Part shown: positions 1 through 55,892 of the stretch, piece after piece
How positions within the stretch are numbered: the stretch's first letter is position 1
Layout of the letters: every line of letters starts with the position of its first letter
IMG/VR virus record: IMGVR_UViG_3300028920_000057
Coordinates: 24,897-88,896 of that record
DNA length: 64,000 nt
Source: a virus
Strand: one strand, 5' to 3'
Notes under the pieces: model-generated
The model's database searches: none
What the model saw: the letters and a program-made list of their open reading frames with translations, nothing else
Told to the model about the DNA's origin: nothing
Translations under genes and position numbers: made by a program

Positions 1-3000
1 TCGTCCTGTCTTGTTCGTCCCAAAAGCTCAGGTCGTCAGATAATGCAGACGTGACGTCTCTATACTTGCCCTTATAATGAGTATATAATTTGAATACTAT
101 TTTATTATCAAAATCAAGATCCAATCCAGTCTTGAAATTAAGTGCTTCAAGTCCGAAATCAAAACTTACTGTGTTAGTAATGTTTGAGTCTCCGTAAATA
201 TAAGGAGTAGGAACAGGCTGATCGTAAGTGACCGTTACGTTATAATTAGGAATAGCCTCAATCGTATGTAGTCTCTGGTAGAATGAGCCGGTTGTGATCT
301 TATTATCTGCGATAGTAAAATATGGTTGTTTTGTCTCGTCAGTATATTCCTCCACGGTAGGAGTAAGTGCAAGCTCCGTGTTTTTAACAGTTGGGATGAT
401 GTTGTACTTAACGGCGAGCTTTCCTGTAGATGCGAGATTGCTGTAAGATTGTCCCAACGTAGGTGCTTCTCGAGTAATTTTCACGCTCTGAGGATTAACC
501 TTAATCATCGGACCTATCAATCTAACTGTCCAGAACTCGCTATTATATGCATCAATAAGCGTATTTATATTGCCTGCGGCTTTTGGAATAATATCGTAGT
601 ATGCATTTTTAATGACCCCATGTGGACTATCGAGCGTAATTGGCGATAGATCTGGATCTGGATCTGCGAAGTTGTTTTCTAGAGTGCTGGTTTCAGGGCC
701 GGCACTTGAAGAAGATCCTTCATTAACATTCAAAATGTCAGAAATGGATACGAGCGAACTTTCAGACAATTCGACTTCTTCCGCAATCCGTTCTTCAAAT
801 CCCGCAAAAGCGCGTTCCATATTGGTTTCAATTTCTCCAAGAGCTTCTTCCATTCTTTGAACGATATCAAAGTATCCAGTATTTCCATATCTGACAATAG
901 TCTCTGTTTGTTGGAGGCGTTTATCTTCTTCATATTGCAGGGCTCTATTAACGGTATCTATCATTAAAGCTGTGCCGTTATACAGGTCGCCGGCAAAAGT
1001 ATATGGAGCATTCAACTTGATGGTATCAGCGTCTTCATCAAAAGTCTCTGGAGTATAATCTGTGTCAATTATAATGGCCGTCGCACTAACGGCAGTAATA
1101 GTGTGTTTGCCGTCGTAAGAATCTGTATTCTCAATTGTAACGATATCATCCACTCTAAAGGAATGTTGTACCGTATTCTCAAGCTTAATTTCCAAACGGG
1201 TCAAACCATCTCCGGCACTTTGAGCAGATCCCGTTAGATAGCCATCTATCCTGCGTATTATAGACTCGGGAATCGTTACGTCACGATGTCCAAAATAGTC
1301 TGCATAATAATCCAGCTGTTCATCCAGCCTGATCCAGCTATCTGTAAAGTATCGATCATATCCGCCAAATTCAGCAAGATCAAGCATAGTGGCATTCTTA
1401 AACAGATTGATCTGACGATATGTCGGGAATCCTTCAAGCTGCGAAATAGCATAAACACATCCCGAACTACTTGAAGATGAAGATCCTTCTTCTGAATCTG
1501 TGGGGCATGTAAATTCCCTGATTACTTCGTCGATATAAATCTTATAATAATAATTGCCAAAGACATTCAGTCCAGGACAGAACTCGTATGGCCCCGCTGA
1601 ACTCGAAGGAATCTCGCAGCTTGACGACAAGGCGCTACTTGAAGAAGACAGAGATGATGAGGAAACCTCTTCTGCAGAAGAAGATGAGGCCGCTCTATTG
1701 TCGATACCACAGACATCCAAGGTGATATCTTCAAAAGCGGTGCGGAATATCGTGTACTTCTTGGGGTTGCTATATAGCCAGGCTGTTGCGTCCAACAAAG
1801 TTAACATTGCATCTGTGCCGAATGTTTCGCTCACAAACGTACGTCTAAGTATAATCATATTTGCACTTGGTGCGTCTGATACGACGTATGTGCCATTGTA
1901 ATTATCTGTCCCGCGAATAGTAACAGATGAGCCTAAAGTAATTCTGTGATCAGGTATATAGAGGCCGAATTTTGTAGAATCTCCGACACTTATTGCGTGT
2001 CCGCCGCTAAGAGAAAACTCTAATTGAGGAAGAGGATATATCGTATAAAAGGATTGCCCGCTCCTATTGTCGTAGCCGCTTCCTCCTCCGCCAAAGATTG
2101 TATTCCACAAATCATCAAAATCCACTGCTGCCAACCCCAATCCCTCTTCTTCGATAATTGAGCTGGAACATGAAGATGACGAAAGCAGTGCTTGCTCTTG
2201 TGAGCTGCTGCAACTGCTGCTGCCACCGCTACTGCAACTGCTGCTGCTTGCTGCCTCTTCCTCAATTTCTGAGAAAGGATCATAATTAATTACGAACTCC
2301 GGCGCCATAATAAGCCATTGATGCTTTGTTCTACCGTACAAGTCCTGCGGAGCCCACCTTGGAGAATAGCCATATGTAAGCTGGTATGGCACATATTGCG
2401 GTACAATAAATCTGTCTTCACCAGGAGTTTTATATTTACAATAATCGGTTCCCGTAGAGAAATTGCAGGTAGGAGAATTGGGATCCAGATCTCTCAAGTA
2501 TCTATAGGATTTCACGTTCTTAAAGAAATCAAAGCCCTCGTTTTGTACTTTAGAGAACTTAGGCTGATTCAGATTTAATTCAGACTGACTGCTTCCCTCA
2601 TACCAGAATACGTTGATATGGTAGTCAAGCAATTCCTGTTCATCTTCTACATCAAGAGGATCTTTTACATGTTGAAGCGCGTACTTCGCAAGTCCGATAA
2701 AAGACAGCGGCAAATCGGTTCTGTACTCTGTGTCCGTCAGATTCTTGGGAGGATATACGTTGACCATCACCCATGCATTAAACAGGGCCAGGTTGTCGAT
2801 GAAGTTTTCTGCCGGATCACTACAATATAAATCTTGCGATATAGAGCTATACTCAATTAATGTAGCCGTGCTTAATCCGATAGAATCCCAAGGAATACTC
2901 AAAAGAGATGCAGGTATATTGAAATCATCCGCGCCTATCCCGGCCCAATTTGCTTCACCACCAAGCAGGTTTGATTCAAAATCATACTTGATGGCGTCGG

Positions 3001-3034
3001 CCATCTGGAAATCTTTATTGATTGCTAATGGCAT
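1..3034 (-). CDS. Large virion structural protein (baseplate/tail-fibre associated), partial, >1010 aa, several poly-Ser tracts
   Basis: ATG at 3034-3032 with GGAG RBS, N-terminus MPLAINKDFQMADAIKYDFESNLLGG. Not in the ORF track, consistent with no stop before the window edge; I checked the frame is open at both ends and at the Ser tracts. Contains EEEAASSSSCSSGGSSSCSSS and SEEGSSSSSSSG, and two similar beta-rich segments (HRITLGSSVTIRGTDNYNGTYVV / HSFRVDDIVTIENTDSYDGKHTI). Confidence 0.75.
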   Translation of the reverse strand, partial: MPLAINKDFQMADAIKYDFESNLLGGEANWAGIGADDFNIPASLLSIPWDSIGLSTATLIEYSSISQDLYCSDPAENFIDNLALFNAWVMVNVYPPKNLTDTEYRTDLPLSFIGLAKYALQHVKDPLDVEDEQELLDYHINVFWYEGSSQSELNLNQPKFSKVQNEGFDFFKNVKSYRYLRDLDPNSPTCNFSTGTDYCKYKTPGEDRFIVPQYVPYQLTYGYSPRWAPQDLYGRTKHQWLIMAPEFVINYDPFSEIEEEAASSSSCSSGGSSSCSSSQEQALLSSSSCSSSIIEEEGLGLAAVDFDDLWNTIFGGGGSGYDNRSGQSFYTIYPLPQLEFSLSGGHAISVGDSTKFGLYIPDHRITLGSSVTIRGTDNYNGTYVVSDAPSANMIILRRTFVSETFGTDAMLTLLDATAWLYSNPKKYTIFRTAFEDITLDVCGIDNRAASSSSAEEVSSSSLSSSSSALSSSCEIPSSSAGPYEFCPGLNVFGNYYYKIYIDEVIREFTCPTDSEEGSSSSSSSGCVYAISQLEGFPTYRQINLFKNATMLDLAEFGGYDRYFTDSWIRLDEQLDYYADYFGHRDVTIPESIIRRIDGYLTGSAQSAGDGLTRLEIKLENTVQHSFRVDDIVTIENTDSYDGKHTITAVSATAIIIDTDYTPETFDEDADTIKLNAPYTFAGDLYNGTALMIDTVNRALQYEEDKRLQQTETIVRYGNTGYFDIVQRMEEALGEIETNMERAFAGFEERIAEEVELSESSLVSISDILNVNEGSSSSAGPETSTLENNFADPDPDLSPITLDSPHGVIKNAYYDIIPKAAGNINTLIDAYNSEFWTVRLIGPMIKVNPQSVKITREAPTLGQSYSNLASTGKLAVKYNIIPTVKNTELALTPTVEEYTDETKQPYFTIADNKITTGSFYQRLHTIEAIPNYNVTVTYDQPVPTPYIYGDSNITNTVSFDFGLEALNFKTGLDLDFDNKIVFKLYTHYKGKYRDVTSALSDDLSFWDEQDRT

Positions 3035-3047
3035 TTATCTCTCCGTA

Positions 3048-3788
3048 TTAAGCGCCAGAAGAATCGGAAGAAGAATCAGAAGACGATGAAGATTCTTCTT
3101 CAGAACTACTGGACTCTGATGATGATGAAGACGATTCGCCGGAAATCGGCGCTGTCGCATCTAAGCCCCTTGGATCTGGCTGATAAACAACATTTCTATC
3201 CGTAAGCTGCGAAGCTGTAACTTTATGTGGATTGTTATAGTCCGCTATATGTTCGTCCAAAGTTTGCTGCGATACCTGGAGTCTGTTTAAGATATCGCTT
3301 TTTGCTGCCGCAGTAGTATTGGCTGCATTATCTATTTGGGTTTCAAGCCTGTCGGTATTTGTTTCCAGCTTGTTCGTAAGTGTTTCAAACTTGGTTTGAA
3401 CCGTAGTGAGCAAACTTGAAAGAGTCGTATTGATAGTCTGAATAGACGTAAGCTCGTCTTTGGTGGTCTCAATAAACTGTTCGATTGCTGTATCTAATTT
3501 GGCGTCGATATAGCTTTTCAATTCCCCGATAGACTCCTCTCTGGCAGTGGAAAGGGCCTGGGTATATTCCTGTACGACTTCGTTCATCTTCTCCCGAAGC
3601 TGAACAAATCTGCGAGCTACTGCAAGTTCAACTTCCTTTGCCGCATCCTCGACCTCATATTTAAATGCGTCGATGGATTCTGCCAGGACCTGCATATTTT
3701 TATTGATAGCATGCCCCCAGTTGTTGTCTCCTGGATTGAAATAAACTATCTGTTGGCCTGTTAAGCCAGGTAAACTTGTTATTGACAT
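3048..3788 (-). CDS. Coiled-coil tail fibre/baseplate-associated protein with C-terminal poly-Ser tail
   Basis: Long heptad-like helical region; HIADYNNPHKVTASQL resembles the H..d..NPH.VT..Q motif of phage fibre proteins; GGAG RBS; in the baseplate module. Confidence 0.55.
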   Translation of the reverse strand: MSITSLPGLTGQQIVYFNPGDNNWGHAINKNMQVLAESIDAFKYEVEDAAKEVELAVARRFVQLREKMNEVVQEYTQALSTAREESIGELKSYIDAKLDTAIEQFIETTKDELTSIQTINTTLSSLLTTVQTKFETLTNKLETNTDRLETQIDNAANTTAAAKSDILNRLQVSQQTLDEHIADYNNPHKVTASQLTDRNVVYQPDPRGLDATAPISGESSSSSSESSSSEEESSSSSDSSSDSSGA

Positions 3789-3801
3789 TTATAGACTCCT
3801 A

Positions 3802-6800
3802 TTAATTACCAAAGTCTTCATCCCACTGATATCCCCATCCATCTTTATCTCCATCATAATAATTATCATTACTCGTATATGCCGGAGCAGATGGCGCGCT
3901 GAATACAGTAAAATCGGTTTCTATCTTAATGGGCGGATTATAATTAATGCCTTGGCTCGATGTTTCGTCTGGGTCATAGATTATTCTATGTCTACCCTTG
4001 CCTTGACCGTTATAAAGAGCGAAGTCTGTATCGACTATTAAAGCTTCGCTGAATTCTCCGGTTAATTTGATATAGAAAAATCCCCGCTTATAGCGAATAT
4101 CATAATCGATCTCGGTATATTCGCTCGTCAGATCTGTTTCGTATTCAATATATAGTTCTGCCGTATAGACATCGTCGCTTAGCAGTGTAAGCTTATCGTT
4201 TTCATCTATAGAGAACTGAACCTCTTGAAGTTCAACGCTATGATCTGTCATAATAATAGGAGCTTGAGGATTATGCTCTTGAGATAGAAAATAATGCTCG
4301 TCCGGCAAAACTGTAACGTAGTGATTTTCATCTACAATTGTTCCATCTATATCTACGATCTTCAAAGATAGATTATATATAGACGCAGAGCTCGACAGAG
4401 AAGAAGATGAGCTGGTAGGAGATTGTTCTTTGATGTAGAGTTCTTGATCGGCTCTGCAATATACTATATTGTTAATATCTCTCAGCTCTCTACCATCAAG
4501 CGCTTCCGATAAAGAATCTGGATCAAGCTTATAGTAAACAAGATCGGTTAACAGCTCTCGTCTTTTATCTATGTATAGATAGAACTGCATCTCTCCGATA
4601 TAGAAGAATCCCGGCTTGACCTGTGGATTATAATTGTCTGCGACACCAACAACCTCTAAGTCTTTAAAGATCTCGAAGTCCTCCAATGTTGCATTGACGC
4701 CACTCTGTATATCAGTAAGCTTTGTCCCATTTACATGATATGTTTCCGATTCTTCCGCGTCAACCCTCCCAAGCAATTGGCCGTTTGCATCAAGAAGCCA
4801 AGAGAAAAATCCGTCGTTATATGCCCTTAGAGTTCCTCCTCCGACCAGGTTTTGGGATATCATGTCCCATCTATCTCGGCCTGCAATTTGTCTGTCCCAG
4901 GTATCGTGAATCAAATTGCGAAGCTCTATAGCTCTATTGTGAGTTCTGTTCAGTTCTTGTGCCGTAATACTTAAGTCTTGAAAAGCCGCAAACGCATCTT
5001 CATCAAAAGTATCTATCCTTACAGGAAGATAATCCATTGAAATATTAACCGTATCGCCATCCACGTCTCTCAGATTGATTGCCCTCAAAGTATCCATCGT
5101 CGTCAAGCCTATTTCACTATCTATCGTGAAGCCTTCGGCCTGTAATTGACGAACCAGATCTCCTATTGATAAACTCGTTAAATCAATCTCGTATTCATAA
5201 TATCGATACTGCACTTCTACGCTTGTCGTTTTAGCTGGATCAGCATAATGATTAAACTGCAAGATAGTAGAGAATTCGTCGTGAGAATATAATGCAGCAG
5301 GATATATTTTGTCGTCAACCTTTACGCTTATGATATTACGGATAGGATATGATAATGTAACATAAGCATAATTTGTGTCAGGCTGAACTGTCTCGGTTAT
5401 TACGGCATCTGGCTGAGAAATATAAAGCATTTCCTTGCGTTTTATCAGAGCCATATTATCTCTGATAGATATGATGCTGGAGATTATTTCTCTGCCGAGC
5501 CTTAGAGTAATGGCATTCAAGATGTCTCGATTGTTACAGCCCGTAGCATAATTTGTACTATAATCGATCATCCTGTTTTTATATCTGTAATTTGATTCTC
5601 CTTCAAGACGAGGAAAATCCCGTATCAAACCATGTTCATCAAGCAGATTAAAATACGGAGCATAAGCAATATCATAGCTAGACAATCCTGTAAGCGTTGC
5701 ATATTCTTCTCTAAAGACAATATCGTTTGTGTCGTCGTCTATAAAATAATAGTCATATTTTAATTCGATCTCCCGCGTAACAACGACGTCCGTAGTTGAA
5801 GAAACAAAGATCTTGTATGGATCTTCAAAAGTCCCGATAAGAGATATGGTGCCGGTTTCCAGGAAGTCAGAGTTAGACAAAGCAACACGTTTTGTAACCG
5901 TCAGGATGTTATCTTCTTCTTCCGGGGCGTCAGGCGTAATCCATAATAGACTATATGTATATTCTGAAGCCCCACTTGAGCTCGACGAGGAAGACGAGGA
6001 TGACGCTTCCTCACCATCTCGAACAAGAGCTACTATGTTTTCATCTTGTAAATATATGTCGATTATTTCTGATGTCGCTTCATCCAGAACACCATTTGGC
6101 ATTAATTCTTCAAGAGTATATCTGTATACAACCGAGCCATCAATAGTTTTAATAATCTGTCCATTATCAACAGAGAACTCTTGAGGATATAGAGTACCAA
6201 AGAATTCTACTTTGAAATCAAAGAACGATTTACCAGTTGTAAACGGTTCGTCAATCGCCGCTTCTGTATCGGAAATACGAGCATACGTCGCAGGAGTTCT
6301 GCGATACATGTCGTTTATACTATTCGTATAGTAAACTCTTCTACCATCGCCCATCAAATAATAAGGATCTGTTTCATTGGTAAGTAACCAATATGGAGTT
6401 TCGTCTGCCTTTCTTGACCATCCGTGATGCTCATAGTCGAGCCATAAGGCGATCTTTGCTCCGGCCGGATCTCCCTCTATAGTTATTTGTGTCAACTCTC
6501 TGGCGTCGGAATCCTTTAAATCAATCACAGAGCTAAAATCCGAGACCTCATAGCTATAATCGGCTCCAGTAGTAATGTTGGCGCCCTCGAGTGTAATTTT
6601 GCTTATAGAGCCTCCTGAGACGCTTAGATAGAATGGTCGATTCCTTGCTATTTGTACGGATAGATATTGGGTGTATCCATCCGCCGTTTCTATCCAGTTA
6701 AGATAGCCGTCTTTAACGTCCATAGAAAAGTCGGAATTACTAATTAGATTAACTGGATCATTGAGATAATCGTCATCAGAAACATGCGGCGTGACATAAA

Positions 6801-7020
6801 GTGCGCTTGGCATGTTGAGGATCGTAGTAGATAAATGCTGGCCGGTAGATATGGCAGATTGATATTCCAGAACATCGGTCAAGATTTCCCCCATAACAGG
6901 GCTCATCAATCTACGCCAATTAGAATTTACCTTCCCACGAAAAGGATGCCATTCAGGAAAACGATTCGCAAACCGCGTAGTTTGCTCATTGTAACCTTCA
7001 AGTCTTATTTTTGTCTGCAT
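3802..7020 (-). CDS. Baseplate wedge/tail structural protein (1072 aa)
   Basis: Directly after the baseplate-J-like gene. LDEHGLIRDFPRLEGESNYRYKNR resembles the 'LD..G...R..gE.d..YR.R' wedge motif. Acidic, with two poly-Ser tracts. Confidence 0.6.
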   Translation of the reverse strand: MQTKIRLEGYNEQTTRFANRFPEWHPFRGKVNSNWRRLMSPVMGEILTDVLEYQSAISTGQHLSTTILNMPSALYVTPHVSDDDYLNDPVNLISNSDFSMDVKDGYLNWIETADGYTQYLSVQIARNRPFYLSVSGGSISKITLEGANITTGADYSYEVSDFSSVIDLKDSDARELTQITIEGDPAGAKIALWLDYEHHGWSRKADETPYWLLTNETDPYYLMGDGRRVYYTNSINDMYRRTPATYARISDTEAAIDEPFTTGKSFFDFKVEFFGTLYPQEFSVDNGQIIKTIDGSVVYRYTLEELMPNGVLDEATSEIIDIYLQDENIVALVRDGEEASSSSSSSSSSGASEYTYSLLWITPDAPEEEDNILTVTKRVALSNSDFLETGTISLIGTFEDPYKIFVSSTTDVVVTREIELKYDYYFIDDDTNDIVFREEYATLTGLSSYDIAYAPYFNLLDEHGLIRDFPRLEGESNYRYKNRMIDYSTNYATGCNNRDILNAITLRLGREIISSIISIRDNMALIKRKEMLYISQPDAVITETVQPDTNYAYVTLSYPIRNIISVKVDDKIYPAALYSHDEFSTILQFNHYADPAKTTSVEVQYRYYEYEIDLTSLSIGDLVRQLQAEGFTIDSEIGLTTMDTLRAINLRDVDGDTVNISMDYLPVRIDTFDEDAFAAFQDLSITAQELNRTHNRAIELRNLIHDTWDRQIAGRDRWDMISQNLVGGGTLRAYNDGFFSWLLDANGQLLGRVDAEESETYHVNGTKLTDIQSGVNATLEDFEIFKDLEVVGVADNYNPQVKPGFFYIGEMQFYLYIDKRRELLTDLVYYKLDPDSLSEALDGRELRDINNIVYCRADQELYIKEQSPTSSSSSLSSSASIYNLSLKIVDIDGTIVDENHYVTVLPDEHYFLSQEHNPQAPIIMTDHSVELQEVQFSIDENDKLTLLSDDVYTAELYIEYETDLTSEYTEIDYDIRYKRGFFYIKLTGEFSEALIVDTDFALYNGQGKGRHRIIYDPDETSSQGINYNPPIKIETDFTVFSAPSAPAYTSNDNYYDGDKDGWGYQWDEDFGN

Positions 7021-8229: not shown

Positions 8230-8240
8230 CTGTTATCTCC

Positions 8241-31197: not shown

Positions 31198-31205
31198 CGT
31201 ATCTG

Positions 31206-31853: not shown

Positions 31854-31864
31854 GGTTCACCTCC

Positions 31865-33712: not shown

Positions 33713-33723
33713 TTATTTTCTCC

Positions 33724-34758: not shown

Positions 34759-35032
34759 TTAGCAAATTCTTAGTAGCGTTTGTTATGATTGACCTAATAT
34801 CCTTAATTGTATCCGCATAGTGTCTAGCGTCAACCTTGAGGTTATTGGCCAGGTATTTGAGCTCTATTTCTCTATAGTCTTTATAGGAAAAGACAAAAAC
34901 GACGCGAACTCCTCTTGGATTAGCATCCTTCGGAGGCGTCTTTTCTATTCTGAGAGGCTCAAGTCCGCTCGTGATACATGCGGCGACTTTTTCAATATCG
35001 CCAACCCTGATTTCTCCCTTGTTCTTGGCCAT
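34751..35032 (-). CDS. Small conserved-type phage protein (DUF5659-like)
   Basis: 93 aa, overlaps both neighbours; D...AA.....G....RVVFVF.....Y..N.L.VDA..Y pattern. Confidence 0.45.
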   Translation of the reverse strand: MAKNKGEIRVGDIEKVAACITSGLEPLRIEKTPPKDANPRGVRVVFVFSYKDYREIELKYLANNLKVDARHYADTIKDIRSIITNATKNLLNE

Positions 35033-37059
35033 TAGCTAAAATATTCCGTATATTGTGGTAATTGATAATATCGGCTGGCTCCCTTAATTGTCGGGAACTG
35101 CCATCCCTGTTTTGTTGATAGATATGTATAGGTACGAGTCCTGAAATTGGGCTTTGTCGTTCTGTGCATACTTCCTTTGATTGCAACCACAAATTGTACC
35201 CCTGTACCGCATAGTACCTTAAGTGCCCGTCGTGCACTTGCGACTTCATCGACAATGCCGTCTTCTTTAGGATTGCGCTTAGTGTTCGAGGCCCTGGCTC
35301 CTACTCTGACGTTATAATCTCCAAGTCGTTTCGAAACCCCTCTCGAGACCGCCGTATCAATATAGGTCAAATCATAGAAATCAAGCAAGGTTTTCTTATA
35401 TGCATATGTGATAGCATCTTCCGGCGGTTCACATAGGTCATATGACATACAGGCTAATTTCCAGGCTTCTATAGAATTCTTCAGAATCATCCTGAGAATC
35501 TTCTCGTCAGAATGTTTATAATTCAGCCCTTCAAGTTCAAGGCGGATAAGATCAATATCAGAATAGATAGGGAACAAACCGGTCATAAACCATTTATGAA
35601 GTTCATTATCCGTAGTCCAGACCATAACGGCGCCATTATCGTCCGCCTGTGACCTCAAGCCAGATTTGATGTAGATGTTAACATCTGTATTCAACGTAGG
35701 ACCTTCATATGTGACAGTAATGCTCGACGAACTCGACACTTCTGGTTCTGAAGATTCACTATCGCTCGAACTTGAAGACTCAGGAGTAGGAGTCTCTCCG
35801 TCTTCTGCGGAGGAAGAAGTATCTTCAGTAGACGAAGTAGATATAGACGACGTTGACTCAGAGCTGGAGGAAGATTCTTCTTCAGCCTCTTCTTCTCTTG
35901 GATCTGTGTTGGAAATATAATATCCCCATGCCGTGCCTTGAACCTCTTGTGTGTCATCGCACCCAGCGATAATGGTTACAGAAAAGTTCTGGTTTGGCGT
36001 AATGGCTATTTCTTCGACTACATAATTGTCATTCGTACTAATACAACCACTATCAAATAAGGTTTGGCCAAGTTGATGAACGATAAATTGATCTTTCACC
36101 TTGAACGAACGATACTTCAAATAGGCAGTTTCAGAAGCTCCAAAGTTGTATTCTCTTGTTTCTTCTCCTACAACGCCTTCTCTGTAGATGTTGTATTCAG
36201 TAACTGTCGTAGTTTCGGTAGGGCCAGAAGGTAAAGAGGATGAAGATGAAGACGAACTGGATGCCTCTTCATATTGCTGGGCCTCCCAGTCTGCGAGCGT
36301 CCCCGGATAAGTAATAAGGACGTCATTCCCTTGAATATAATAATTAACATCAGGAAATAACTTGTCGTTTCTATTATCCAGACAAAATGCCGACGTTCCT
36401 TCTGCTGCATAAGAATCTTCAAAGTCTTCTACATCATAGACCATTGCCCTGATATCTACCATAGGCTTATGCTCTAATATGATATATTCTCTGGCAGAAG
36501 CCAGATCTACTGGACGATTGAAGGTTAATCGAATACCATTCTCGGCTATAAACGCAGGAGAAACAAGCATCTCGCCATGCGCAGGTTCCATATCTACAAA
36601 TTCTAAAGGAATCGTCTCTACTGCGATAGGTTGGTCGTCAATGACAACATAGACAGTCTCTGTCTCTTGAGGCGCATTTTCTCTAGGACTTGACGCAACA
36701 ACCGCAGAAGGAGCCCTGACACCAGTAGTAAATAAAATAGTTTGTGTTTGTAGAACGGAATTGCCGTCTGTGTCTTTAACCTCTCCTACAAACTGGCTGA
36801 GATCTTTACCTGAAATAATGATCTTATAACCTGTTTGTTCATTGAGAGATAATGCAGGAAGAACCTTTACCACGTTGCCAGAAGTAACATAGCTTGCACG
36901 AACTGGTGTAGAAGTATCACGATTCAATAGCGCTATAGTGCCGCTATTAACAGAGGCTGAATCAATATCCTTATTAAAAGTTAGCGTAATAGTGTTTTCT
37001 ATCTGAAAGTTGTTGTCTCCACTCGTAGGGGAACTTCTAACAAGAATAGGAGTTGACAT
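35032..37059 (-). CDS. Ig-like (Big_5-type) domain head/neck structural protein with Ser-rich linkers
   Basis: N-terminal SSP..G......I.LTFNKDIDSASV...P...L...T.Y.I.I..V.D.DGN...F.TG Ig-like pattern; C-terminal SKRLGDYNV resembles head-tail adaptors; long Ser/Glu tracts. Confidence 0.65.
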   Translation of the reverse strand: MSTPILVRSSPTSGDNNFQIENTITLTFNKDIDSASVNSGTIALLNRDTSTPVRASYVTSGNVVKVLPALSLNEQTGYKIIISGKDLSQFVGEVKDTDGNSVLQTQTILFTTGVRAPSAVVASSPRENAPQETETVYVVIDDQPIAVETIPLEFVDMEPAHGEMLVSPAFIAENGIRLTFNRPVDLASAREYIILEHKPMVDIRAMVYDVEDFEDSYAAEGTSAFCLDNRNDKLFPDVNYYIQGNDVLITYPGTLADWEAQQYEEASSSSSSSSSLPSGPTETTTVTEYNIYREGVVGEETREYNFGASETAYLKYRSFKVKDQFIVHQLGQTLFDSGCISTNDNYVVEEIAITPNQNFSVTIIAGCDDTQEVQGTAWGYYISNTDPREEEAEEESSSSSESTSSISTSSTEDTSSSAEDGETPTPESSSSSDSESSEPEVSSSSSITVTYEGPTLNTDVNIYIKSGLRSQADDNGAVMVWTTDNELHKWFMTGLFPIYSDIDLIRLELEGLNYKHSDEKILRMILKNSIEAWKLACMSYDLCEPPEDAITYAYKKTLLDFYDLTYIDTAVSRGVSKRLGDYNVRVGARASNTKRNPKEDGIVDEVASARRALKVLCGTGVQFVVAIKGSMHRTTKPNFRTRTYTYLSTKQGWQFPTIKGASRYYQLPQYTEYFS

Positions 37060-37325: not shown

Positions 37326-37345
37326 AATATGCCCCTCTTTATATG

Positions 37346-37373
37346 AAAAAACCCCTGGCCGAAACCAGGGGTT
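37346..37373 (-). terminator. Intrinsic terminator after the major capsid gene
   Basis: Minus strand AACCCCTGG-tttcgg-CCAGGGG-TTTTTT. Confidence 0.8.
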
Positions 37374-37397
37374 CTTAATATCGCACTACATAGTGGA

Positions 37398-38792
37398 TTA
37401 GGTAGCGCTGGAACTGGAGCTGTCTTCAATTCCCGCAGAAATTGTCGGCAGTTCACCGTTTGAGATGTCCCAGGTAACCTTATCTTCCATGAAGTAGGCT
37501 TGGTCGATTGCGATGTTCTTAAGAACACGCGCAGCTTTACCCTGGTTAACGTTAATCATGGAGTACCGTTCCCGGAACTTCATTTTATAAACGTCAACCC
37601 GAGGATCGTTCCAGTCTTCAGTGTAGAGGTCTTCGTCGACGACGAGCAAACCTGCCTGATCGGCCTGAAGCAGAACGATGTCGGTGACCCACTTGCTCAG
37701 AGTGGTGTTCCAGGTTACAGGAGCATAAGGCGTAACAACAATGTTGAAGCCTAAGCCACCATAGCCAGGTACCTGGAATGCGAACGTTGCATTGGCGGCT
37801 CCGCCAACTGAAGTACCGGAAGTGGCACCCAGTGCGACAGATTGACCAACGTTCTGTCCGTAAGGTACGTTAACACCAAGCTGAGGAGCATAGACGGATC
37901 CACCCGTAGGAGGAGTCCAGAATGCGCCACCTTGACCACGGAAGAACTGTTCCCGAAGGATCGGATCTTTCGCGAAGATTGTCCATGCAAGCGGATGACA
38001 GACAAGCGTGTTGAGGTGCCAGCCTTCTTGCAGGGCGTCAATGTAAGCGTCAACCAGATCGTCAACGATAAGGGTCCAGTTACCATTACCATTGATATCA
38101 CGACCTTTGGACCGGCGAGCGCCGGAGGCAATGTTGTCGATATAGGTAGAACCCAGGTTGAAGATAAGGTCGGAAGCTTTCTTTTCTTTATGACGAATCA
38201 GAGCCTGACGCGCCTGACGGGCATGCAGGTTAACGACGTCAAATGCGGAATAACGGATAGCTTCTTCAGTGAAGTTTACCGCGATACCGACTTTCCCGAT
38301 CGTGGCGGTTACTGAACCGCTGTAATCGAGAGCCAGTTCGGGGTATTCTTCGCCTTCTGCCATATCGAGCTCGAGGTTACCGGCTGCGCCTACGGCGGGG
38401 AAGGTGATTGAAGTACCGTTTTGGAATCTTACTTGCGTAAGCATCCGAGTAAGCGGGTTGTCCTGCGGAAGAGGTTCCCGAACCACGTTGGCGACAACGT
38501 GAGGAATCAGGTTCCGGTATTCAGCAGATGTGACAGCATCGCTCGTTTTGCTGGCTAATTCGACTGATTTGTCAATCAGATCTGGAAGCTCAACATGCTT
38601 GTCAAGCTCACGGTGGTAACCGTTATCTTTCCAGATTTGAGTCCACAGAGCAAGGCGGTCCCGAACTTCCTGTTTTTCAGTCTTCGGTTTAGCTTTGTCG
38701 TCTGCTTTTTCGATCTGGCCTTTGACAACAGCGTGCAGTTCTTCCATAACCTTATCAACTACAGCCATAGCATCTTTTTTTACATTATCCAT
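37398..38792 (-). CDS. Major capsid protein (HK97 fold)
   Basis: LIP..VANVVREP, MAEGEEYPE, IGKVGIAVNFTEEAIRYSAFDVV, WNDPRVDV..MKFRERY; GGAGG RBS; follows protease and decoration genes; has its own terminator. Confidence 0.88.
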   Translation of the reverse strand: MDNVKKDAMAVVDKVMEELHAVVKGQIEKADDKAKPKTEKQEVRDRLALWTQIWKDNGYHRELDKHVELPDLIDKSVELASKTSDAVTSAEYRNLIPHVVANVVREPLPQDNPLTRMLTQVRFQNGTSITFPAVGAAGNLELDMAEGEEYPELALDYSGSVTATIGKVGIAVNFTEEAIRYSAFDVVNLHARQARQALIRHKEKKASDLIFNLGSTYIDNIASGARRSKGRDINGNGNWTLIVDDLVDAYIDALQEGWHLNTLVCHPLAWTIFAKDPILREQFFRGQGGAFWTPPTGGSVYAPQLGVNVPYGQNVGQSVALGATSGTSVGGAANATFAFQVPGYGGLGFNIVVTPYAPVTWNTTLSKWVTDIVLLQADQAGLLVVDEDLYTEDWNDPRVDVYKMKFRERYSMINVNQGKAARVLKNIAIDQAYFMEDKVTWDISNGELPTISAGIEDSSSSSAT

Positions 38793-49227: not shown

Positions 49228-51363
49228 CTATACTAGAGCGAGACCGTGAGGCCTGCTGTTAAACTGTTCTGTATGCCGATAGGGGTGTCTATATACATGC
49301 CCCGGCTTATAGTTTACCATTGCACGAGATGTCTGTTGATTATACTTTATCATTTGCGGCTGTCTACTCGGCATTGCCGGACTTGGAGGAATGACTTTAT
49401 TGTTCTGGCTTCCACTCATAACATACGAACCTAGAGCAAGGCCAATACCTCCAATAATCGTTCCTTTAGCCATTTTGCTTTGTCTAATATTCTTTGCCAA
49501 GGCATTGAATGTCTCTGCAAAATAGCCTCCTCCCGACATAACTCCTTTCTCGACCTTTTGAGCAATCTTCTCGCCCGCCTCGTTATACAGCTCGCCGAAC
49601 TTCCTAGTACCAGGCATTAGTCTGTCTCGAATCCCGGTAAAAGCTCGACCAAAAGCCAAGTCTGCATCATAACCAGCGCTGCCGTAAATTCCGTAAGCAG
49701 TTACTCCCAACAAGCCTACGGCTGCGGCCATCGTCGGATGACGCATCTTTTCTCCTGGCCGACCTCTATCGTTCAGGATGTTATGTGTAGTAGATACTGC
49801 GGCATAGCCAAGGAGCCCTAGAGATCCAAATCGTGCAATCTTCCCTCCAAAAGATGAGACTCTGTCCCCCATCACGTGAGAAAGGGATGCTTTGAGATTC
49901 GGATAGCCTGGTACAATCTTGTTTGCATTCCATGTCGCGGCTCCAAGCCCTCCTGCAATCATTGCGTCGACAAATGGGTCACTCGGATCTCCTGCCCATC
50001 TGTCCAGAGTCTCTTGCGCAGGAGACTTACTCATGAAACGATAAGCAGTAAAGCCGCCAAGCATACCTATACCAACGCCCAGCCAGCCCATCTTTCTGCC
50101 AGTCTCGCCCAGAGTACCTTCAAAAAGCGCAACTGTTCTATTAATTTTTATCTTCTCTGAGATCTCCTCGGCCGTATCAGTCATAAACTCGAGCTTCTTG
50201 GTCCTCACGAACGGCTTTCCGTCGTCTCCCAGATAAAGGTTCTTTTCTACATTGGCCTTTTCTGCTCTGGCTCTTTTCTTTTTCTTAGCCTGATCTACCT
50301 GTCCTGCTCGAGTCTGTACTTGAGGAAATCCCGGAGCCACCTTTGTCCAGCTATCCTGCATACCTGCGACGACTTCCCCTTCGTCAGTCACTACGGCGAA
50401 TTGCGTCAGAATATCATTACCAAGGGTATCGGGCAGGGCTGAGTGAGCTGTCTCAACATGAATACGAACGCCATCGATTTCAAGCGTCTTACCAGGACGA
50501 CGTCCGGTATTCGGATTCGCAAGGATATCTTCCTGCTTAAGACTTGGAACAAATCCCTCCGGCACGTTCTCTCCAAAGGGGATCTCTTGAGTGTCGATCC
50601 ATCTCAGCTTGTCATTATGGATCGCATCCTTTAGTCTCGTAATAAGCTTGTATCGTTTGGAGCGTTTATCCTTTATTGTTCTTTGTACTGCGCGGAAATG
50701 ACCGTATAAACGTTGTGCATCGAAATCTCGCACATTGTGTCCAGTAACTGTTCCGGCATGTTCAAACAGATAGATCATCTGTTCCAGCTGTTCGTCTGAA
50801 AGAGCCTTGCCCGCTAAGTCTCCATATGTAATATTGCCCCTAAAAACCTTTTGGGCCCCTTTCTCAATAATTTCGTCAGGCTTTGCTTTCTTATGAGCAT
50901 CACTTATGAGTCGTGGATCTTGTAGCGCATCAAAGTTAAACAGGGTACTGATTTTTTCCCCTGTCTTGACATTGTGTTGAGTAACGTGCATGGAGATCTG
51001 AAACACCGCCTCGGCATTACCAAGGCCGGTAGTTTCAAGATCGAGGAAGATATTGAGAGATCTATTCTTGAAGGATTTAGATTTGACAGTGTCCTGCAGA
51101 TTAAGGAAAGCCTTGTTGTCGTCCAGCCAGCCGGATCTCCTGCCAAACTTATATTTGTAACGGTGGCCACCCTCGGTAATGACGGATAGCGCCTGGTCTT
51201 CTGCCTTGGTCAGTGGCCTCATTACGCCTTTGCGGCCAGAATGAACGTCTGTTGCCTCCGGGTCCCAGACGTAGGGGTAATCTTCACCATAAAGGTGATA
51301 GATAACACTCCCTTCGGTAAACTTCACTCCGCCTTGTTTGGCTGTTTTAGGCCTCTTCGCCAT
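49228..51363 (-). CDS. DEDDh (DnaQ-like) 3'-5' exonuclease domain fused to a Gly-rich membrane-like C-terminal region
   Basis: ExoI IFLDLETTGL, ExoII GHNVRDFD, IDT, ExoIII AHSALPD; C-terminal half has about five GxxxG hydrophobic segments. Confidence 0.75.
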   Translation of the reverse strand: MAKRPKTAKQGGVKFTEGSVIYHLYGEDYPYVWDPEATDVHSGRKGVMRPLTKAEDQALSVITEGGHRYKYKFGRRSGWLDDNKAFLNLQDTVKSKSFKNRSLNIFLDLETTGLGNAEAVFQISMHVTQHNVKTGEKISTLFNFDALQDPRLISDAHKKAKPDEIIEKGAQKVFRGNITYGDLAGKALSDEQLEQMIYLFEHAGTVTGHNVRDFDAQRLYGHFRAVQRTIKDKRSKRYKLITRLKDAIHNDKLRWIDTQEIPFGENVPEGFVPSLKQEDILANPNTGRRPGKTLEIDGVRIHVETAHSALPDTLGNDILTQFAVVTDEGEVVAGMQDSWTKVAPGFPQVQTRAGQVDQAKKKKRARAEKANVEKNLYLGDDGKPFVRTKKLEFMTDTAEEISEKIKINRTVALFEGTLGETGRKMGWLGVGIGMLGGFTAYRFMSKSPAQETLDRWAGDPSDPFVDAMIAGGLGAATWNANKIVPGYPNLKASLSHVMGDRVSSFGGKIARFGSLGLLGYAAVSTTHNILNDRGRPGEKMRHPTMAAAVGLLGVTAYGIYGSAGYDADLAFGRAFTGIRDRLMPGTRKFGELYNEAGEKIAQKVEKGVMSGGGYFAETFNALAKNIRQSKMAKGTIIGGIGLALGSYVMSGSQNNKVIPPSPAMPSRQPQMIKYNQQTSRAMVNYKPGHVYRHPYRHTEQFNSRPHGLALV

Positions 51364-52288: not shown

Positions 52289-52312
52289 AAAAAAGACTCC
52301 CCGAAGGGAGCC
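52289..52312 (-). terminator. Intrinsic terminator with a UUCG loop
   Basis: Minus strand GGCTCCC-TTCG-GGGAGTC-TTTTTT. Confidence 0.75.
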
Positions 52313-52404
52313 ATAAACAGTGCCATGACAAAGTCATAAGCAGGTTTTGATACGCAGTCCGTATTCGGACTGACGCTTGGGGCTCGAGTCGTATGAGCCT
52401 CAAC

Positions 52405-52557
52405 TTATTTGAACAAGCCCTTAGACTTGCTTCCTAGACCAGAACCAGGAGTCTGGTTATTGGGAGGAGGCGTGGGCTGTCCCGGAATCTTAACTGGTTT
52501 CGTTGCTGAAAGATTCGGCTGCGTAGCAGCAATCTGATTCGAACTTGTAACTGCCAT
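52405..52557 (-). CDS. Small Pro/Gln-rich protein (50 aa)
   Basis: MAVTSSNQIAATQPNLSATKPVKIPGQPTPPPNNQTPGSGLGSKSKGLFK; GGAG RBS overlapping the lipase stop; below the ORF-track cutoff. Confidence 0.55.
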   Translation of the reverse strand: MAVTSSNQIAATQPNLSATKPVKIPGQPTPPPNNQTPGSGLGSKSKGLFK

Positions 52558-52566
52558 TTTCAACTC

Positions 52567-53343
52567 CTACAAAAGTTTTTCCAATGCTTTTACATAACCT
52601 TCGACACTGTGATCTTTATAAGACCACGGACTGAATGTGCAGACCCAATCTGCGAGCTCGTCGAGTTTCTTCATGTAATAACCTTTACTATGGATTCTGA
52701 CTGGCTTGCCTGCATGCTTATAGATCTTAAACGGAGGTAACGCGGGGACTACGTCATTCTGCAGCCTAATGCGCCATGTTTCATCAATTTGTGAATGAGA
52801 CTTGGCAAACGTCTTATCTCCCGTCTTTGGGGACCCAAAAGTATAACACGCCGAGATATAGCCATAGGCCCTCATATCCATCGCACATTGTTGTGCAAGT
52901 GGTCCGCCCATACTGAAGCCGGCGCAGTAAACTTTTGCAACTTCCAATGACCTCATTGCTTTTTTAATTGTTTTTGCAACAGCATGGTAAGCCGCATGAT
53001 ATCCAAGATGAACCTTGCCTGCGAAGTTATCTCCAGGTTTACGGTTGATAAATTGCGCATTTGTTTTCCAGTCTTTAAGGTTCCATGGCTCTGTACCTCT
53101 GAAGACTATGGCGCATGCTGTCTTTGACAACTTGAAGATACCAACCTGAACATCGAGTTCTTTATTTTCGATCGATTGATACAGTCTTGGATTATTGGCA
53201 ACCTCAATCGACCTTATCTCCGAACAGAGCGTTGCAAGGTCATGTGCCATTTTTACGTCGAGTCCTTTTGGGGGAATCGTTTTATCTTTCCAGCGACCAA
53301 ACCAGCCCGATATTTTTTTCATGATTTTCTTTAAAGCTTGCAT
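52567..53343 (-). CDS. Class 3 lipase (alpha/beta hydrolase, Lipase_3)
   Basis: VFRGT, VHLGY, nucleophile elbow GFSMGG, YTFGSPKTGD, NDVVPALPP, YKHAG, DHS; catalytic triad appears intact. Confidence 0.88.
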   Translation of the reverse strand: MQALKKIMKKISGWFGRWKDKTIPPKGLDVKMAHDLATLCSEIRSIEVANNPRLYQSIENKELDVQVGIFKLSKTACAIVFRGTEPWNLKDWKTNAQFINRKPGDNFAGKVHLGYHAAYHAVAKTIKKAMRSLEVAKVYCAGFSMGGPLAQQCAMDMRAYGYISACYTFGSPKTGDKTFAKSHSQIDETWRIRLQNDVVPALPPFKIYKHAGKPVRIHSKGYYMKKLDELADWVCTFSPWSYKDHSVEGYVKALEKLL

Positions 53344-53507
53344 TATTTACTCCAAAATAATGTTATAAGCCAGTATATTATACACGTAACAGGGGTAAAT
53401 ATCAAGACCGCCCCTGTCATCACTACATTTGTGAGCCTAAAGTGGTAGTCATCCGCATCTCTGGCTTCCTGTAAATACGAGCGAATACCATCGCAAATAG
53501 CTTTCAT
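53343..53507 (-). CDS. Small membrane protein (54 aa, one C-terminal TM segment)
   Basis: GAGGT RBS; MKAICDGIRSYLQEARDADDYHFRLTNVVMTGAVLIFTPVTCIIYWLITLFWSK; TAATG coupling to the lipase. Confidence 0.45.
   Translation of the reverse strand: MKAICDGIRSYLQEARDADDYHFRLTNVVMTGAVLIFTPVTCIIYWLITLFWSK
53377..53405 (-). promoter_or_regulatory. Sigma70-like promoter TTGATA-N17-TATAAT
   Basis: Near-consensus -35/-10 with a 17-nt spacer, about 35 nt upstream of the lipase ATG. Confidence 0.65.
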
Positions 53508-53531: not shown

Positions 53532-53696
53532 TTAGTTTGCTTGAATCAAGCGGATAAGAAAGATTGCGTCCCGATAGTTTGTCAGACCGTCGCGGACATA
53601 CTTTCTCCAAATGAGATGAGAATTGAGGTGGTCGTATTGGGTAAGGAACTGGGGTGTGCGTTGACGCAGTAAGGTCAACGCATCTTGTTTACTCAT
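53532..53696 (-). CDS. Small hypothetical protein (54 aa)
   Basis: MSKQDALTLLRQRTPQFL...; start overlaps the end of the epimerase gene. Confidence 0.45.
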   Translation of the reverse strand: MSKQDALTLLRQRTPQFLTQYDHLNSHLIWRKYVRDGLTNYRDAIFLIRLIQAN

Positions 53697-54648
53697 AGTA
53701 ATCTTTGTACCATTCAACAAAAGCTTCCACCCCGTTTTCTACCGACACAACCGGTTTATAGCCAATATGTTCGAATAAACTATCCGTACTGGCATACGTC
53801 ATCTTCACATCGCCAAGCTGCATAGGCATAAGGTCTAACAGGGCCTCTTTTCCGGTAGCTTTTTCTATAGCGGCTATGAAGTCCATCAGGCGAACCGGTT
53901 CACCCCGCCCGATGTTGAACACCTTCAGGCCCGACGGCTTGAAGGTCACTCCCTTGATCCCTGCAACGATATCGTCCACGTAGGTGAAATCGCGCATAAG
54001 ATCCCCATTATTATACACAGGAATGGGTTCTCCTGCAAGGATCTTCTTTGTAAAGATAAATAGAGCCATATCCGGCCTACCCCATGGCCCATATACTGTA
54101 TGAAAGCGCAGACCAGTACACTGCATATTGTATAGCTTATTATATGCATGAGCCATAAGTTCGTTGCATCGTTTTGTAACACCGTAAAGAGAAGACTGAG
54201 TGTCGCATTTATGCGACTCTTTAGATGGAAACTCTGTCGAGTCCCCATAAACTGAAGAACTTGACGCATAAACAATGTGTCTAACAGGCCAGTGCCTGCA
54301 GCACTCTAACACATTTAAGAATCCTGTAATATTTGAATCTATATAAGTCTGAGGAGATTCCAAGCTATGACGAACGCCAGCTTGAGCAGCTAAGTGAATT
54401 ACATAATCTATATTACATGCAAGAAAAATTTTCTCTAGCCCTGCTCGATTTTCGAGTGAATCCTGGGTAAACTTGAAGTTGTCATAGATAGTAAGGCGTT
54501 TTAATCTCGCTTCTTTAAGACTGACATCATAATAGTCATTCATATTGTCATATCCAATGACTGTATGCCCAACATCCAGCAGTTTCTTTGCGGTATGAAA
54601 ACCTATAAAGCCTGCTGCCCCGGTAAGTAATATCTTTAGAGTCGCCAT
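53689..54648 (-). CDS. NAD-dependent epimerase, UDP-glucuronate 4-epimerase-like (extended SDR)
   Basis: TGAAGFIG, DNMNDYYDVSLKEARL, HLAAQAGVRHSLE, YASSSSVYG, YGVTK, GLRFHTVYGPWGRPDMA, RDFTYVDD, FNIG, GDV..TYA. Start revised to ATG 54648. Confidence 0.92.
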   Translation of the reverse strand: MATLKILLTGAAGFIGFHTAKKLLDVGHTVIGYDNMNDYYDVSLKEARLKRLTIYDNFKFTQDSLENRAGLEKIFLACNIDYVIHLAAQAGVRHSLESPQTYIDSNITGFLNVLECCRHWPVRHIVYASSSSVYGDSTEFPSKESHKCDTQSSLYGVTKRCNELMAHAYNKLYNMQCTGLRFHTVYGPWGRPDMALFIFTKKILAGEPIPVYNNGDLMRDFTYVDDIVAGIKGVTFKPSGLKVFNIGRGEPVRLMDFIAAIEKATGKEALLDLMPMQLGDVKMTYASTDSLFEHIGYKPVVSVENGVEAFVEWYKDYYE

Positions 54649-55892
54649 ACGTATTGCCCCGATTTTGGTTCCACACAACCTTTGACGTCAATTATTACGT
54701 CATATTCATCAAAGAATCCCTTTTGTTTAAATTGCTTATGGTCAACAGCTACAATAGCTATTGCCATATCCTGCGGTTCGATAGGTTCAATACCAAATAC
54801 CCTTTTCATTGACAGACTGTCAACATACGGATCCATTCCTTCTACTATAACCCCATACTCCTTCAATTCTTTTATTATATCAACTACCTTTGAATTCCTT
54901 AAGTCAGGACAATTAGCCTTAAAAGTAAGACCATAGATATGAAATGCCGCTGAAGCCAAATTCCGGGCCATCATTAACTTTATTGCCTTAGACGCTACAA
55001 AGCGCCCCATCGAATCATTTATCCGTCTCCCGGCCAGGATTAGCTCTGGATTGTACCCTACAGCCCGAGCCTTGTATGTAAGATAATAAGGATCAACACC
55101 TATACAGTGACCTCCTACCAGACCCGGCTTAAAGTCAAGAAAATTCCACTTGGTACAAGCTGCCCTTAAAACCTCAAGAGTGTCAATTTGCAATTTGTCA
55201 AATAGTAAAGCCAGTTCATTCATAAGGGCTATATTCAAATCACGCTGGGTGTTCTCAATAACCTTGGCCGCCTCAGCAACCCTGATAGATGAACACCTGA
55301 ACGTACCAACCTTGACGATCGTATTGTAGACCGCCTCGACTACGTCGAGTGCGTCCTCATTAGAAGCGGATAGGAGTTTGGTAATTTTAGACAAAGTGCG
55401 CCGCTTATCACCAGGGTTGATCCTTTCAGGAGAATAACCAACAAAGAAGTCCTTGTTGTAAACAAGGCCCTCGCTCTCAAGAATAGGAATACAAACCTCC
55501 TCAGTAGTACCAGGATAGACGGTTGACTCATAGACAACTATATCTCCCTTAGATAAGACACTCGCGGCCAGACGAGATGCCTCGATCAAAGGAGTAAGGT
55601 CCGGCTTCTTGTGGTCGTCCACTGGTGTAGGTACTGCCACAATATAAAAATCACACTTGGCTATGTCTTTAGAATCAAAAGTGTATTTGACGTCCGTAGC
55701 AAGCAAGTCCTTAATGGCTACCTCGTAAGTGCGATCAACACCCTCCCTGAGCTCACCAATACGCTGTTTGTTGACATCAAAACCGATAACGCGTCCGAAT
55801 TTACCCAAAGCTACAGCAACCGGCAACCCAACGTAGCCCAAACCAATTACTGCAACCTTCCTGTTATGTCCATTTTTAGGTGTAATGCGCAT
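54636..55892 (-). CDS. UDP-N-acetylhexosamine 6-dehydrogenase (TviB/WbpO-like, UDP-glucose/GDP-mannose dehydrogenase family)
   Basis: IGLGYVGLP, VAVPTP, YESTVYPGTTEE, GYSPERINPGD, AEAAKVIENTQRDLNIALMNEL, TKWNFL.FKPGLVGGHCIGVDPYYL, GLTFKANCPDLRNSK. Confidence 0.93.
   Translation of the reverse strand: MRITPKNGHNRKVAVIGLGYVGLPVAVALGKFGRVIGFDVNKQRIGELREGVDRTYEVAIKDLLATDVKYTFDSKDIAKCDFYIVAVPTPVDDHKKPDLTPLIEASRLAASVLSKGDIVVYESTVYPGTTEEVCIPILESEGLVYNKDFFVGYSPERINPGDKRRTLSKITKLLSASNEDALDVVEAVYNTIVKVGTFRCSSIRVAEAAKVIENTQRDLNIALMNELALLFDKLQIDTLEVLRAACTKWNFLDFKPGLVGGHCIGVDPYYLTYKARAVGYNPELILAGRRINDSMGRFVASKAIKLMMARNLASAAFHIYGLTFKANCPDLRNSKVVDIIKELKEYGVIVEGMDPYVDSLSMKRVFGIEPIEPQDMAIAIVAVDHKQFKQKGFFDEYDVIIDVKGCVEPKSGQYVWRL

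Follow-up and report, generated by a model that had tools for sequence, protein, structure and literature searches.

Why should so many unrelated proteins of one phage carry runs of pure serine? The question is raised by IMG/VR record IMGVR_UViG_3300028920_000057, a linear contig of 88,896 bp of which bases 24,897-88,896, a stretch of 64,000 nucleotides, make up the window analyzed here (coordinates are in window numbering unless marked contig). Judging from its genes, the source is a large uncultured tailed phage, a myophage of ~190 kb with a distant resemblance to Bacillus phage 0305phi8-36 and Moorella phage MTATph1. An earlier note, made from the window alone, had proposed that the poly-Ser tracts of its structural proteins are a shared acceptor sequon for an acidic glycan coat. 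Comparison of the sequences supports the first part of this idea, namely that outward-facing virion proteins have the tracts in common and that these are selected at the protein level. That they are acceptors for glycosylation is a tentative prediction, which is weighed below against the alternatives.

Every tract listed in the earlier note was found (Table 1), and run statistics were compiled for the full set of 49 proteins that the contig encodes (28,169 aa in total). These contain 70 runs of at least four Ser, where 0.96 would be expected, and 39 of at least five, against an expected 0.07. Ser is the only residue that forms runs above chance: there are no runs of four for Asp, Glu, Thr, Ala, Asn, Gln, Pro, Leu, Val or Ile, one for Gly and two for Lys. 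Codons are mixed within the Ser runs (adjacent identical codons 0.17, expected 0.19), which rules out replication slippage as the source of the short runs and bears out the earlier argument for selection on the protein. The residues ahead of the runs are not random either. Glu is enriched, standing at position -2 in 14 of 30 runs and at -3 in 10 of 30; position -1 is Ala or Glu in 16 of 30; and 19 of 30 have an acidic residue no more than three residues upstream, against 36% expected (p = 0.002).

Which proteins carry the runs? The carriers are 12 unrelated proteins (paralogy was excluded by comparing them after masking the Ser runs), every one of which is a fibre, baseplate-module, sheath, immunoglobulin (Ig)-domain or capsid protein. 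Conversely, the internal, packaging and non-structural proteins, 14,780 aa in all, are free of runs, although the average rate predicts 16 (P = 9e-8). The large terminase subunit (TerL), the portal and the early proteins, already listed as free of runs, belong here, and so do the three giant proteins of the tape-measure and hub locus, the neighbours of TerL and portal, the tube-like and small neck-region proteins, and the other non-structural proteins. The single exception among the last is the SSSS of a sugar epimerase, which lies in an ASSSSVYG stretch that we take to be a conserved enzyme motif of epimerases of the short-chain dehydrogenase/reductase (SDR) family. The sheath carries a tract and the tube-like proteins do not, as expected because the sheath covers the tube. 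The rule that fits these sequences is that Ser runs are confined to outward-facing particle proteins.

The major capsid protein (MCP) has its tag two residues before the C-terminus, and in an AlphaFold2 (AF2) model the last 12 residues (453-464) are disordered. Among MCP relatives of 54-90% identity, six of eight have SSSS, SSSSS or SSSSSS at the C-terminus or within a few residues of it, and the spacer preceding the tag has diverged completely among them; the remaining two end in SSSTTVV and STSITNP. Tag-bearing relatives are on contigs of 109,237, 99,927, 92,975 and 185,062 bp. Further out, a Ser run was found in none of 80 more distant MCP homologues, and no MCP Ser tag was found in the neighbourhoods of TerL homologues of 28-44% identity (160 loci), which contain 0.2 runs of five Ser per 10,000 aa. 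A profile of the sub-clade MCPs, searched against viral and genome contig sets, returned relatives of at most 39% identity or nothing. By analogy with other HK97-type capsids, the MCP C-terminus is probably exposed on the outer face of the head. It may be noted that one distant relative, outside the tag-bearing sub-clade, has between its TerL and capsid genes (locus 7969-8742) a gene for a 258-aa protein ending in S8-R-S6-R-S10.

The sheath tells a similar story. Its core fold aligns with the sheaths of phi812, pyocin R2 and contractile injection systems (VIA Z 21-23, ~317 aligned residues), so that ~317 of its 615 residues correspond to minimal sheaths of ~350-385 aa. In the AF2 model (mean pLDDT 86.6, pTM 0.87) the Ser loop, residues 242-251, is the only segment with a pLDDT below 50 apart from the N-terminal arm, and it sits in a small beta region (216-305) where relatives bear insertions. 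Domains added to the sheath core point outward in published sheath structures, and by analogy the Ser loop would face outward in the assembled tail. Structure prediction has in this way placed both the capsid tag and the sheath tract in a disordered tail or loop, their position on the outer face being the conjectural part.

A sheath of 77% identity keeps NSSSSSGDF. Another, of 49% identity (encoded on the 99,927-bp contig, which also has a TerL of 54% identity), is without the 11-residue insert and has TSSSSTSSSS in a different insert ~40 residues downstream, and a third relative has ~80 extra residues inserted at the same region. Among sheath representatives in general any run of four Ser is rare (3 of 150). 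What is maintained, to judge from these alignments, is the presence of a Ser tract and not its exact place. A tract that is kept or re-created at differing places argues for function and against neutral drift. Could the tracts nevertheless be near-neutral, functionless low-complexity insertions that are easily generated in this lineage and tolerated in exposed loops and termini? They do sit at disordered, insertion-tolerant positions, and one array (see below) is a recent tandem duplication. But a neutral process would have to account for runs formed above chance by Ser only and from mixed codons, for an EE[AE] leader that recurs in unrelated proteins, and for an MCP tag that persists while the spacer before it has diverged completely. 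We regard this explanation as very unlikely.

The pattern extends to the remaining 25 kb of the contig, left of the window, where the carriers have PHROG virion structural matches or contain collagen or discoidin modules. The protein p876 starts with MTSSSSSEE, has a (SSSS[S]E)n array of ~240 residues and finishes in an F5/8 discoidin domain; p819 ends in S11-N-S6, and p658 is 16% Ser. Part of the p876 array is encoded by a 51-nt tandem repeat (contig 3196-3561; 7.2 copies, 94% matches) that specifies a 17-aa super-unit and points to recent expansion, probably with polymorphism in the length of the spacer. Within the window, the 1072-aa baseplate-module protein and the 675-aa Ig-domain protein were said in the earlier note to have an identical 13-residue stretch; EEA plus nine Ser is indeed common to both, the run being S10 in the former and S9 in the latter. 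Their designations there as wedge and head protein had gene position as their sole basis, PHROGs and Pfam giving no family for the first and only a Big_5 domain for the second.

Are the tracts, then, simply linkers? They could be unmodified polyserine linkers and tails, that is, flexible, hydrophilic, slippage-resistant spacers that keep the modules of fibre and decoration proteins apart and form a hydrated, weakly acidic brush on which no enzyme acts, much as in modular carbohydrate-active enzymes of marine bacteria. The longest tracts are built just like ordinary polyserine linkers, the p876 array being flanked by the N-terminal anchor domain and the discoidin domain, and most tracts of p1294, p658, p675 and p1072 are internal. 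That one tract is a recent 51-nt tandem expansion, whose length can drift, also tells against a modification tag, as does the failure of scans of the 89-kb contig to find a transferase (see below). Polyserine linkers that separate carbohydrate-binding modules from catalytic modules are, moreover, documented (PMC2386152). Four tracts, however, are terminal (at the C-terminus of MCP, p819 and p246 and at the N-terminus of p876) and so cannot be interdomain linkers. The tags of four to six Ser at the extreme end of the MCP join nothing, yet are kept down to 54% identity; p819 and p246 finish in Ser tails and p876 starts with one. The five-residue insert in the sheath loop is too short for a spacer, yet it is kept in one relative and another tract lies nearby in a second, and the common Glu-Glu-Ala leader suggests recognition. 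On balance plain linkers are a strong rival explanation, to which we give a somewhat lower chance than to modification.

Since the MCP tags, the p819 and p246 tails, the sheath loop and the common leader are poorly explained by linkers, a single trans-acting factor that recognizes Ser runs is the most economical alternative. We therefore favour, at somewhat less than an even chance, the reading that the runs are selected surface tags that serve as acceptors for O-linked modification, mainly glycosylation, for which mycobacteriophage virions and bacterial acidic Ser repeats (see below) offer precedent. That the tags lie on the outside of the assembled particle, that they are modified at all and that they are tied to the sugar genes is what we infer beyond the sequence patterns, and the mechanism envisaged is as follows. 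Flexible tags or spacers, often led by Glu-Glu-Ala/Glu, would have been selected onto the capsid C-terminus, the Ig protein, the outer loop of the sheath, the baseplate-module proteins and the fibres. A soluble cytoplasmic enzyme would recognize them on many unrelated proteins and modify the Ser hydroxyls, most probably by O-glycosylation, before or during assembly, giving a hydrophilic and possibly acidic coat on the particle. Its gene would be sited in the missing ~100 kb of the genome, or the enzyme would be of host origin. A dehydrogenase and a 4-epimerase encoded in the window, which together could make a UDP-N-acetylhexosamine (HexNAc)-uronic acid or its C4 epimer, may supply the sugar.

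Is there an enzyme that could attach it? All open reading frames (ORFs) of the contig were searched against Pfam, and most also against PHROGs; glycosyltransferase (GT) families GT2 and GT4 were also sought in six frames. Several results weigh against glycosylation. No glycosyltransferase, kinase or other protein-modifying enzyme was found in any ORF of the 89 kb, so that the absence of glycosyltransferases that had been noticed in the window extends to the whole contig and to kinases; nor is there an SdgA/GtfA-like or GT4/DUF1975-type gene in this contig, which is ~46% of the genome. Relatives that bear glycosyltransferase genes, including relatives rich in them, are without Ser tags. It follows that a transferase alone predicts nothing, and that one found later would still need tying to the tags. 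Lastly, the link of the sugar genes to the virion is weak, as detailed below. Of the earlier proposal of an acceptor sequon for an acidic coat, several elements stand (the tracts appear selected, are kept or re-created in relatives and fall in disordered tails and loops, and both sugar enzymes are real), but its transferase is absent from the 89 kb.

How much weight does this absence carry? CheckV puts the completeness of the record at 46%, and two distant relatives that are complete, as indicated by terminal repeats, measure 190 and 193 kb; more than half of the phage genome therefore lies outside the recovered contig. As 54% of the genome is unseen and GT2 genes occur in four of five long relatives, the absence of a transferase here proves nothing, and because GT2 genes are common in the wider phage family a transferase in the missing half is plausible. 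Virion modification by phages is a known kind of system, and in this case its decisive component, the transferase, is outside the recovered DNA. In one distant relative, whose TerL is 39% identical, seven GT2-family genes cluster within 13 kb (bases 24,400-37,500); its capsid protein is without a Ser tag.

Four proteins encoded between the sugar genes and TerL were considered as hidden transferases and rejected: p241 is Gly/Ala-rich and hydrophobic; p711 resembles a DEDD exonuclease in its N-terminal part and is Gly/Ala-rich and hydrophobic in its C-terminal part; and p291 and p308 are products of core genes that are also present in tag-less relatives. Both p241 and p711 are lineage-specific, being absent from 160 related loci. 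General O-glycosylation of the periplasmic, PglL type was rejected on general grounds, since virions assemble in the cytoplasm.

A different O-modification has also to be considered, such as phosphorylation (an alternative that the earlier note had named) or a phosphodiester-linked group, as does direct binding of cations or minerals by the tracts in the manner of phosphoserine-rich acidic proteins. The combination of Ser and Glu does resemble the composition of acidic phosphoprotein repeats. The 89 kb, however, encode no kinase or phosphotransferase domain, and the acidic residues precede the runs, whereas the known acidophilic kinase motifs have them downstream. We give this possibility only a very small chance.

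If glycosylation is nevertheless supposed, are the sugars the phage's own? The window carries the genes for the two nucleotide-sugar enzymes, and their earlier naming as a UDP-HexNAc dehydrogenase and a UDP-glucuronate-epimerase-like protein is borne out by Pfam, NCBIfam and PDB matches. The dehydrogenase passes the cut-off of subfamily TIGR03026 (369 bits, cut-off 190) and falls below that of the TviB equivalog NF011729 (491 bits, cut-off 592); its best PDB match is Cap5O. The epimerase is well below the TviC equivalog NF011728 (127 bits, cut-off 760) and matches the PDB entries 5u4q (380 bits) and 6zl6, the UDP-GlcA 4-epimerase of B. cereus (178 bits). An ortholog of the dehydrogenase, 82% identical, is encoded on the 109,237-bp contig of the relative with 90% identity, where MCP, sheath and dehydrogenase occur together.

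There is close to an even chance that these genes have nothing to do with the virion, whatever the tags are, and instead form an auxiliary cassette that was acquired from a polysaccharide locus of a bacterium and that redirects the host UDP-HexNAc pool, alters the host surface or feeds DNA modification. Side by side, such genes are a standard bacterial cassette: 34 of 80 loci, from many phyla and with dehydrogenases of 46-56% identity, have an SDR epimerase homologue beside the dehydrogenase. Bacterial matches of 55-59% identity fill the best 120 of the dehydrogenase search, and the spread of homologues over many phyla gives no host signal. Dehydrogenases of this kind are rare in cultured phages, and, among the matches listed, the only relative of this phage to have one, and the pair, is the nearest (90%). 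Neither the 160 TerL neighbourhoods nor five long relatives yielded a dehydrogenase homologue; these are also tag-less, and their lack of the gene is therefore uninformative on any link between sugars and tags.

Transcription signals point the same way. The earlier note had put the sugar genes in the same minus-strand block as the structural genes, and they are indeed on that strand and ahead of them, but the strongest matches to sigma70-like promoters precede the dehydrogenase gene and the class-3 lipase gene that follows the pair, and a terminator-like hairpin stands immediately ahead of the packaging block, whose first gene is the 308-aa core gene. On the evidence of these consensus matches, the sugar genes and the lipase gene appear to be separate sigma70-type units that are closed ahead of the late block, a further point against a part in building the virion. 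Set against this are the position of the pair, on the same strand and directly ahead of the packaging and structural genes, and its G+C content, which is like that of the rest of the contig. The divergence of the dehydrogenase from the relative's copy (82% identity) is about that of core genes (77-90%), and such agreement in G+C and divergence marks a stable resident gene. Acidic sugars would, besides, fit the acidic context of the tags. In sum, it is doubtful that the attached sugars would be the phage's own uronic acids. The full scheme, in which a lineage of ~190-kb uncultured myophages coats the whole particle (capsid, Ig-domain protein, sheath, periphery of the baseplate and fibres) with a self-made HexNAc-uronic acid O-glycan, carried on Glu-led poly-Ser tags and attached by an unseen transferase, is likewise a distinctly unlikely conjecture. 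The lipase/esterase itself is an unusual accessory gene for a place between sugar and packaging genes.

How does the putative tagging system compare with known ones? In mycobacteriophages, glycans are on the C-termini of capsid and tail-tube subunits (Freeman et al. 2023, cited in PMC12619734). As far as that account goes, O-glycosylation in Che8 and other mycobacteriophages is similar in having a capsid C-terminal tail as the site (a predicted one here), in affecting several virion proteins and in being accompanied by sugar-related phage genes. Those systems are, however, defined by phage glycosyltransferases and measured glycans, whereas the present phage is known from sequence only, and it further differs in its host and in being a ~190-kb myophage with a tract on the sheath rather than the tube, pure Ser runs with an acidic leader, and a predicted uronic acid. 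The models are consistent with exposed-tail acceptors of the mycobacteriophage type, in that the MCP tag is predicted to be disordered and the sheath tract to lie in an outer loop, with no tract on the tube-like proteins.

A second parallel is with secreted enzymes. Polyserine linkers are a feature of enzymes of Teredinibacter turnerae. They are equally found in modular carbohydrate-active enzymes of Saccharophagus degradans and Cellvibrio japonicus (PMC2386152). These too are near-pure Ser runs placed between modules, also ahead of carbohydrate-binding modules, but they belong to secreted bacterial enzymes, whereas the tracts here are in particle proteins, are in many cases very short, are terminal in four cases and have a Glu-rich leader. 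A run between modules is seen in p876, and not in the MCP, p819 and p246 tags or at the p876 N-terminus.

Acidic Ser-Asp (SD) repeats are glycosylated by the cytoplasmic enzymes SdgA and SdgB (PMC3794999, PMC8561734), and serine-rich repeat (SRR) glycoproteins by GtfA and GtfB (PMC3794999, PMC8561734, PMC2952246). Like the p876 array, SD-repeat and SRR proteins have long acidic Ser-rich stretches as stalks that present a binding domain, and theirs are O-GlcNAc-modified by soluble GT-B enzymes. They differ in being anchored to the cell wall and in their repeat unit, which is SD or SX in place of SSSS(S)E, and the contig has no SdgA/GtfA-like gene. The phage arrays accordingly lack the SD/SX dipeptide pattern, and the lack of a dedicated transferase is seen within an incomplete genome. 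Finally, pairs of a 6-dehydrogenase and an SDR 4-epimerase are common in bacteria, as in the TviB/TviC (Vi antigen), WbpO/WbpP and Cap5O cassettes. The phage pair differs from them in scoring below both equivalog cut-offs, in having an epimerase nearer to UDP-GlcA/GalA 4-epimerases, and in being without a polymerase or transferase partner in the contig.

To our knowledge, experimental demonstrations of virion glycosylation are confined to a few mycobacteriophages, whose particles it shields from antibodies. If an acidic coat over the whole particle were real, a uronic-acid glycan would be described on a virion for the first time, and the tags would be the first sequence-defined 'glyco-tag' in a phage outside the actinobacteriophages. 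Were short poly-Ser tags a sign of modification that could be read generally from sequence, metagenomes would allow the surface chemistry of phages to be predicted, a chemistry that affects how they adsorb to particles and mucus, their colloidal stability and their recognition by the immune system. Engineered phage particles might also be decorated with the tags as portable handles. The present case brings in a lineage of jumbo myophages, a tag that is on the sheath and not on the tube, and possibly an acidic sugar, and it shows the limit of inference while the transferase lies outside the recovered DNA.

Table 1. Features of the window and of the adjoining part of the contig, with the positions of Ser runs in the virion proteins
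Feature	Position	Strand	Assignment and remarks	Ser runs
Fibre-like protein p1294	2..3034	-	5' 1011 of 1294 codons; starts at 3034 and continues past the left edge of the window	Seven runs, at 2237-2248, 2171-2182, 1634-1687, 1463-1483, 704-715
246-aa protein p246	3048..3788	-	Weak PHROG matches (virion structural proteins, tail fibre proteins)	Final ~30 residues an S/E/D tail with three runs, 3078-3134
1072-aa baseplate-module protein (p1072)	3802..7020	-	No Pfam or PHROG family; adjoins gp6-like wedge gene	EEA+S10 at 5974-6003; PTSSSSSLSSS at 4399-4413
gp6-like wedge gene	7084-8229	-	Tail/baseplate	
gp25-like wedge gene		-	Tail/baseplate	
Two tube-like genes		-	Tail/baseplate	
Three giant proteins (1372, 1857 and 2801 aa)		-	Tape-measure and hub locus	
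Tail sheath, 615 aa	31865..33712	-	PHROG tail sheath; VIA Z 23 to phi812 sheath	ANSSSSSGD at 32972-32986
675-aa protein (p675) with N-terminal Big_5 Ig-like domain	35032..37059	-	Pfam Big_5, 1e-14; adjoins capsid gene	EEA+S9 at 36235-36261; S/E/T-rich stretch with three S5 runs at 35722-35874
Major capsid protein, 464 aa, HK97 fold	37398..38792	-	PHROG major head protein; Foldseek HK97	IEDSSSSSAT, codons 37401-37430; SSSSS at 37407-37421
Portal	41216-43090	-	Packaging/head block	
TerL	45633-47606	-	Packaging block	
p241 (241 aa)	47606-48331		Accessory, near TerL	
p711 (711 aa)	49228-51363		Accessory, near TerL	
Class-3 lipase gene	52567-53343	-	Unit 52295..53405, between sugar genes and packaging/structural block; near-consensus sigma70-like promoter 53405-53377, terminator-like hairpin 52312-52295 (consensus matches only)	
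Extended-SDR nucleotide-sugar 4-epimerase	53689..54678	-	Pfam Epimerase, 2e-53; closest to UDP-uronate 4-epimerases	
Nucleotide-sugar 6-dehydrogenase, TviB-like (UDP-GlcNAc/GalNAc type)	54636..55892	-	Complete, with all three Pfam UDPG_MGDP_dh domains	
p876	contig 1449-4079			See text
p132	contig 4076-4474			

Some minor features of the fibre-like proteins are of note. In p1294 a single Cys stands between Ser runs at 2171-2248 and 1634-1687 (SSSSC..SSSC..SSSSC), and p876 is very Cys-rich outside its array. The N-terminal ~90 residues of p132 and p876 are a common domain (40% identity) that is followed in both by collagen-like G-x-y; from the sequences, this looks like a shared anchor by which two different fibres are attached to the particle. 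A 256-aa fibre-module ORF gave only chance-level matches in the ESM Atlas.

As to the genome as a whole, the minus strand bears a block of packaging, head, tail, baseplate and fibre genes. Its MCP and TerL are 24-30% identical to those of Moorella phage MTATph1, Bacillus phage 0305phi8-36 and Acinetobacter phage ME3. The recovered DNA yielded no tRNA genes. The TerL of this phage is free of inteins, and the TerL homologues of several relatives have intein (Hint/LAGLIDADG) insertions.

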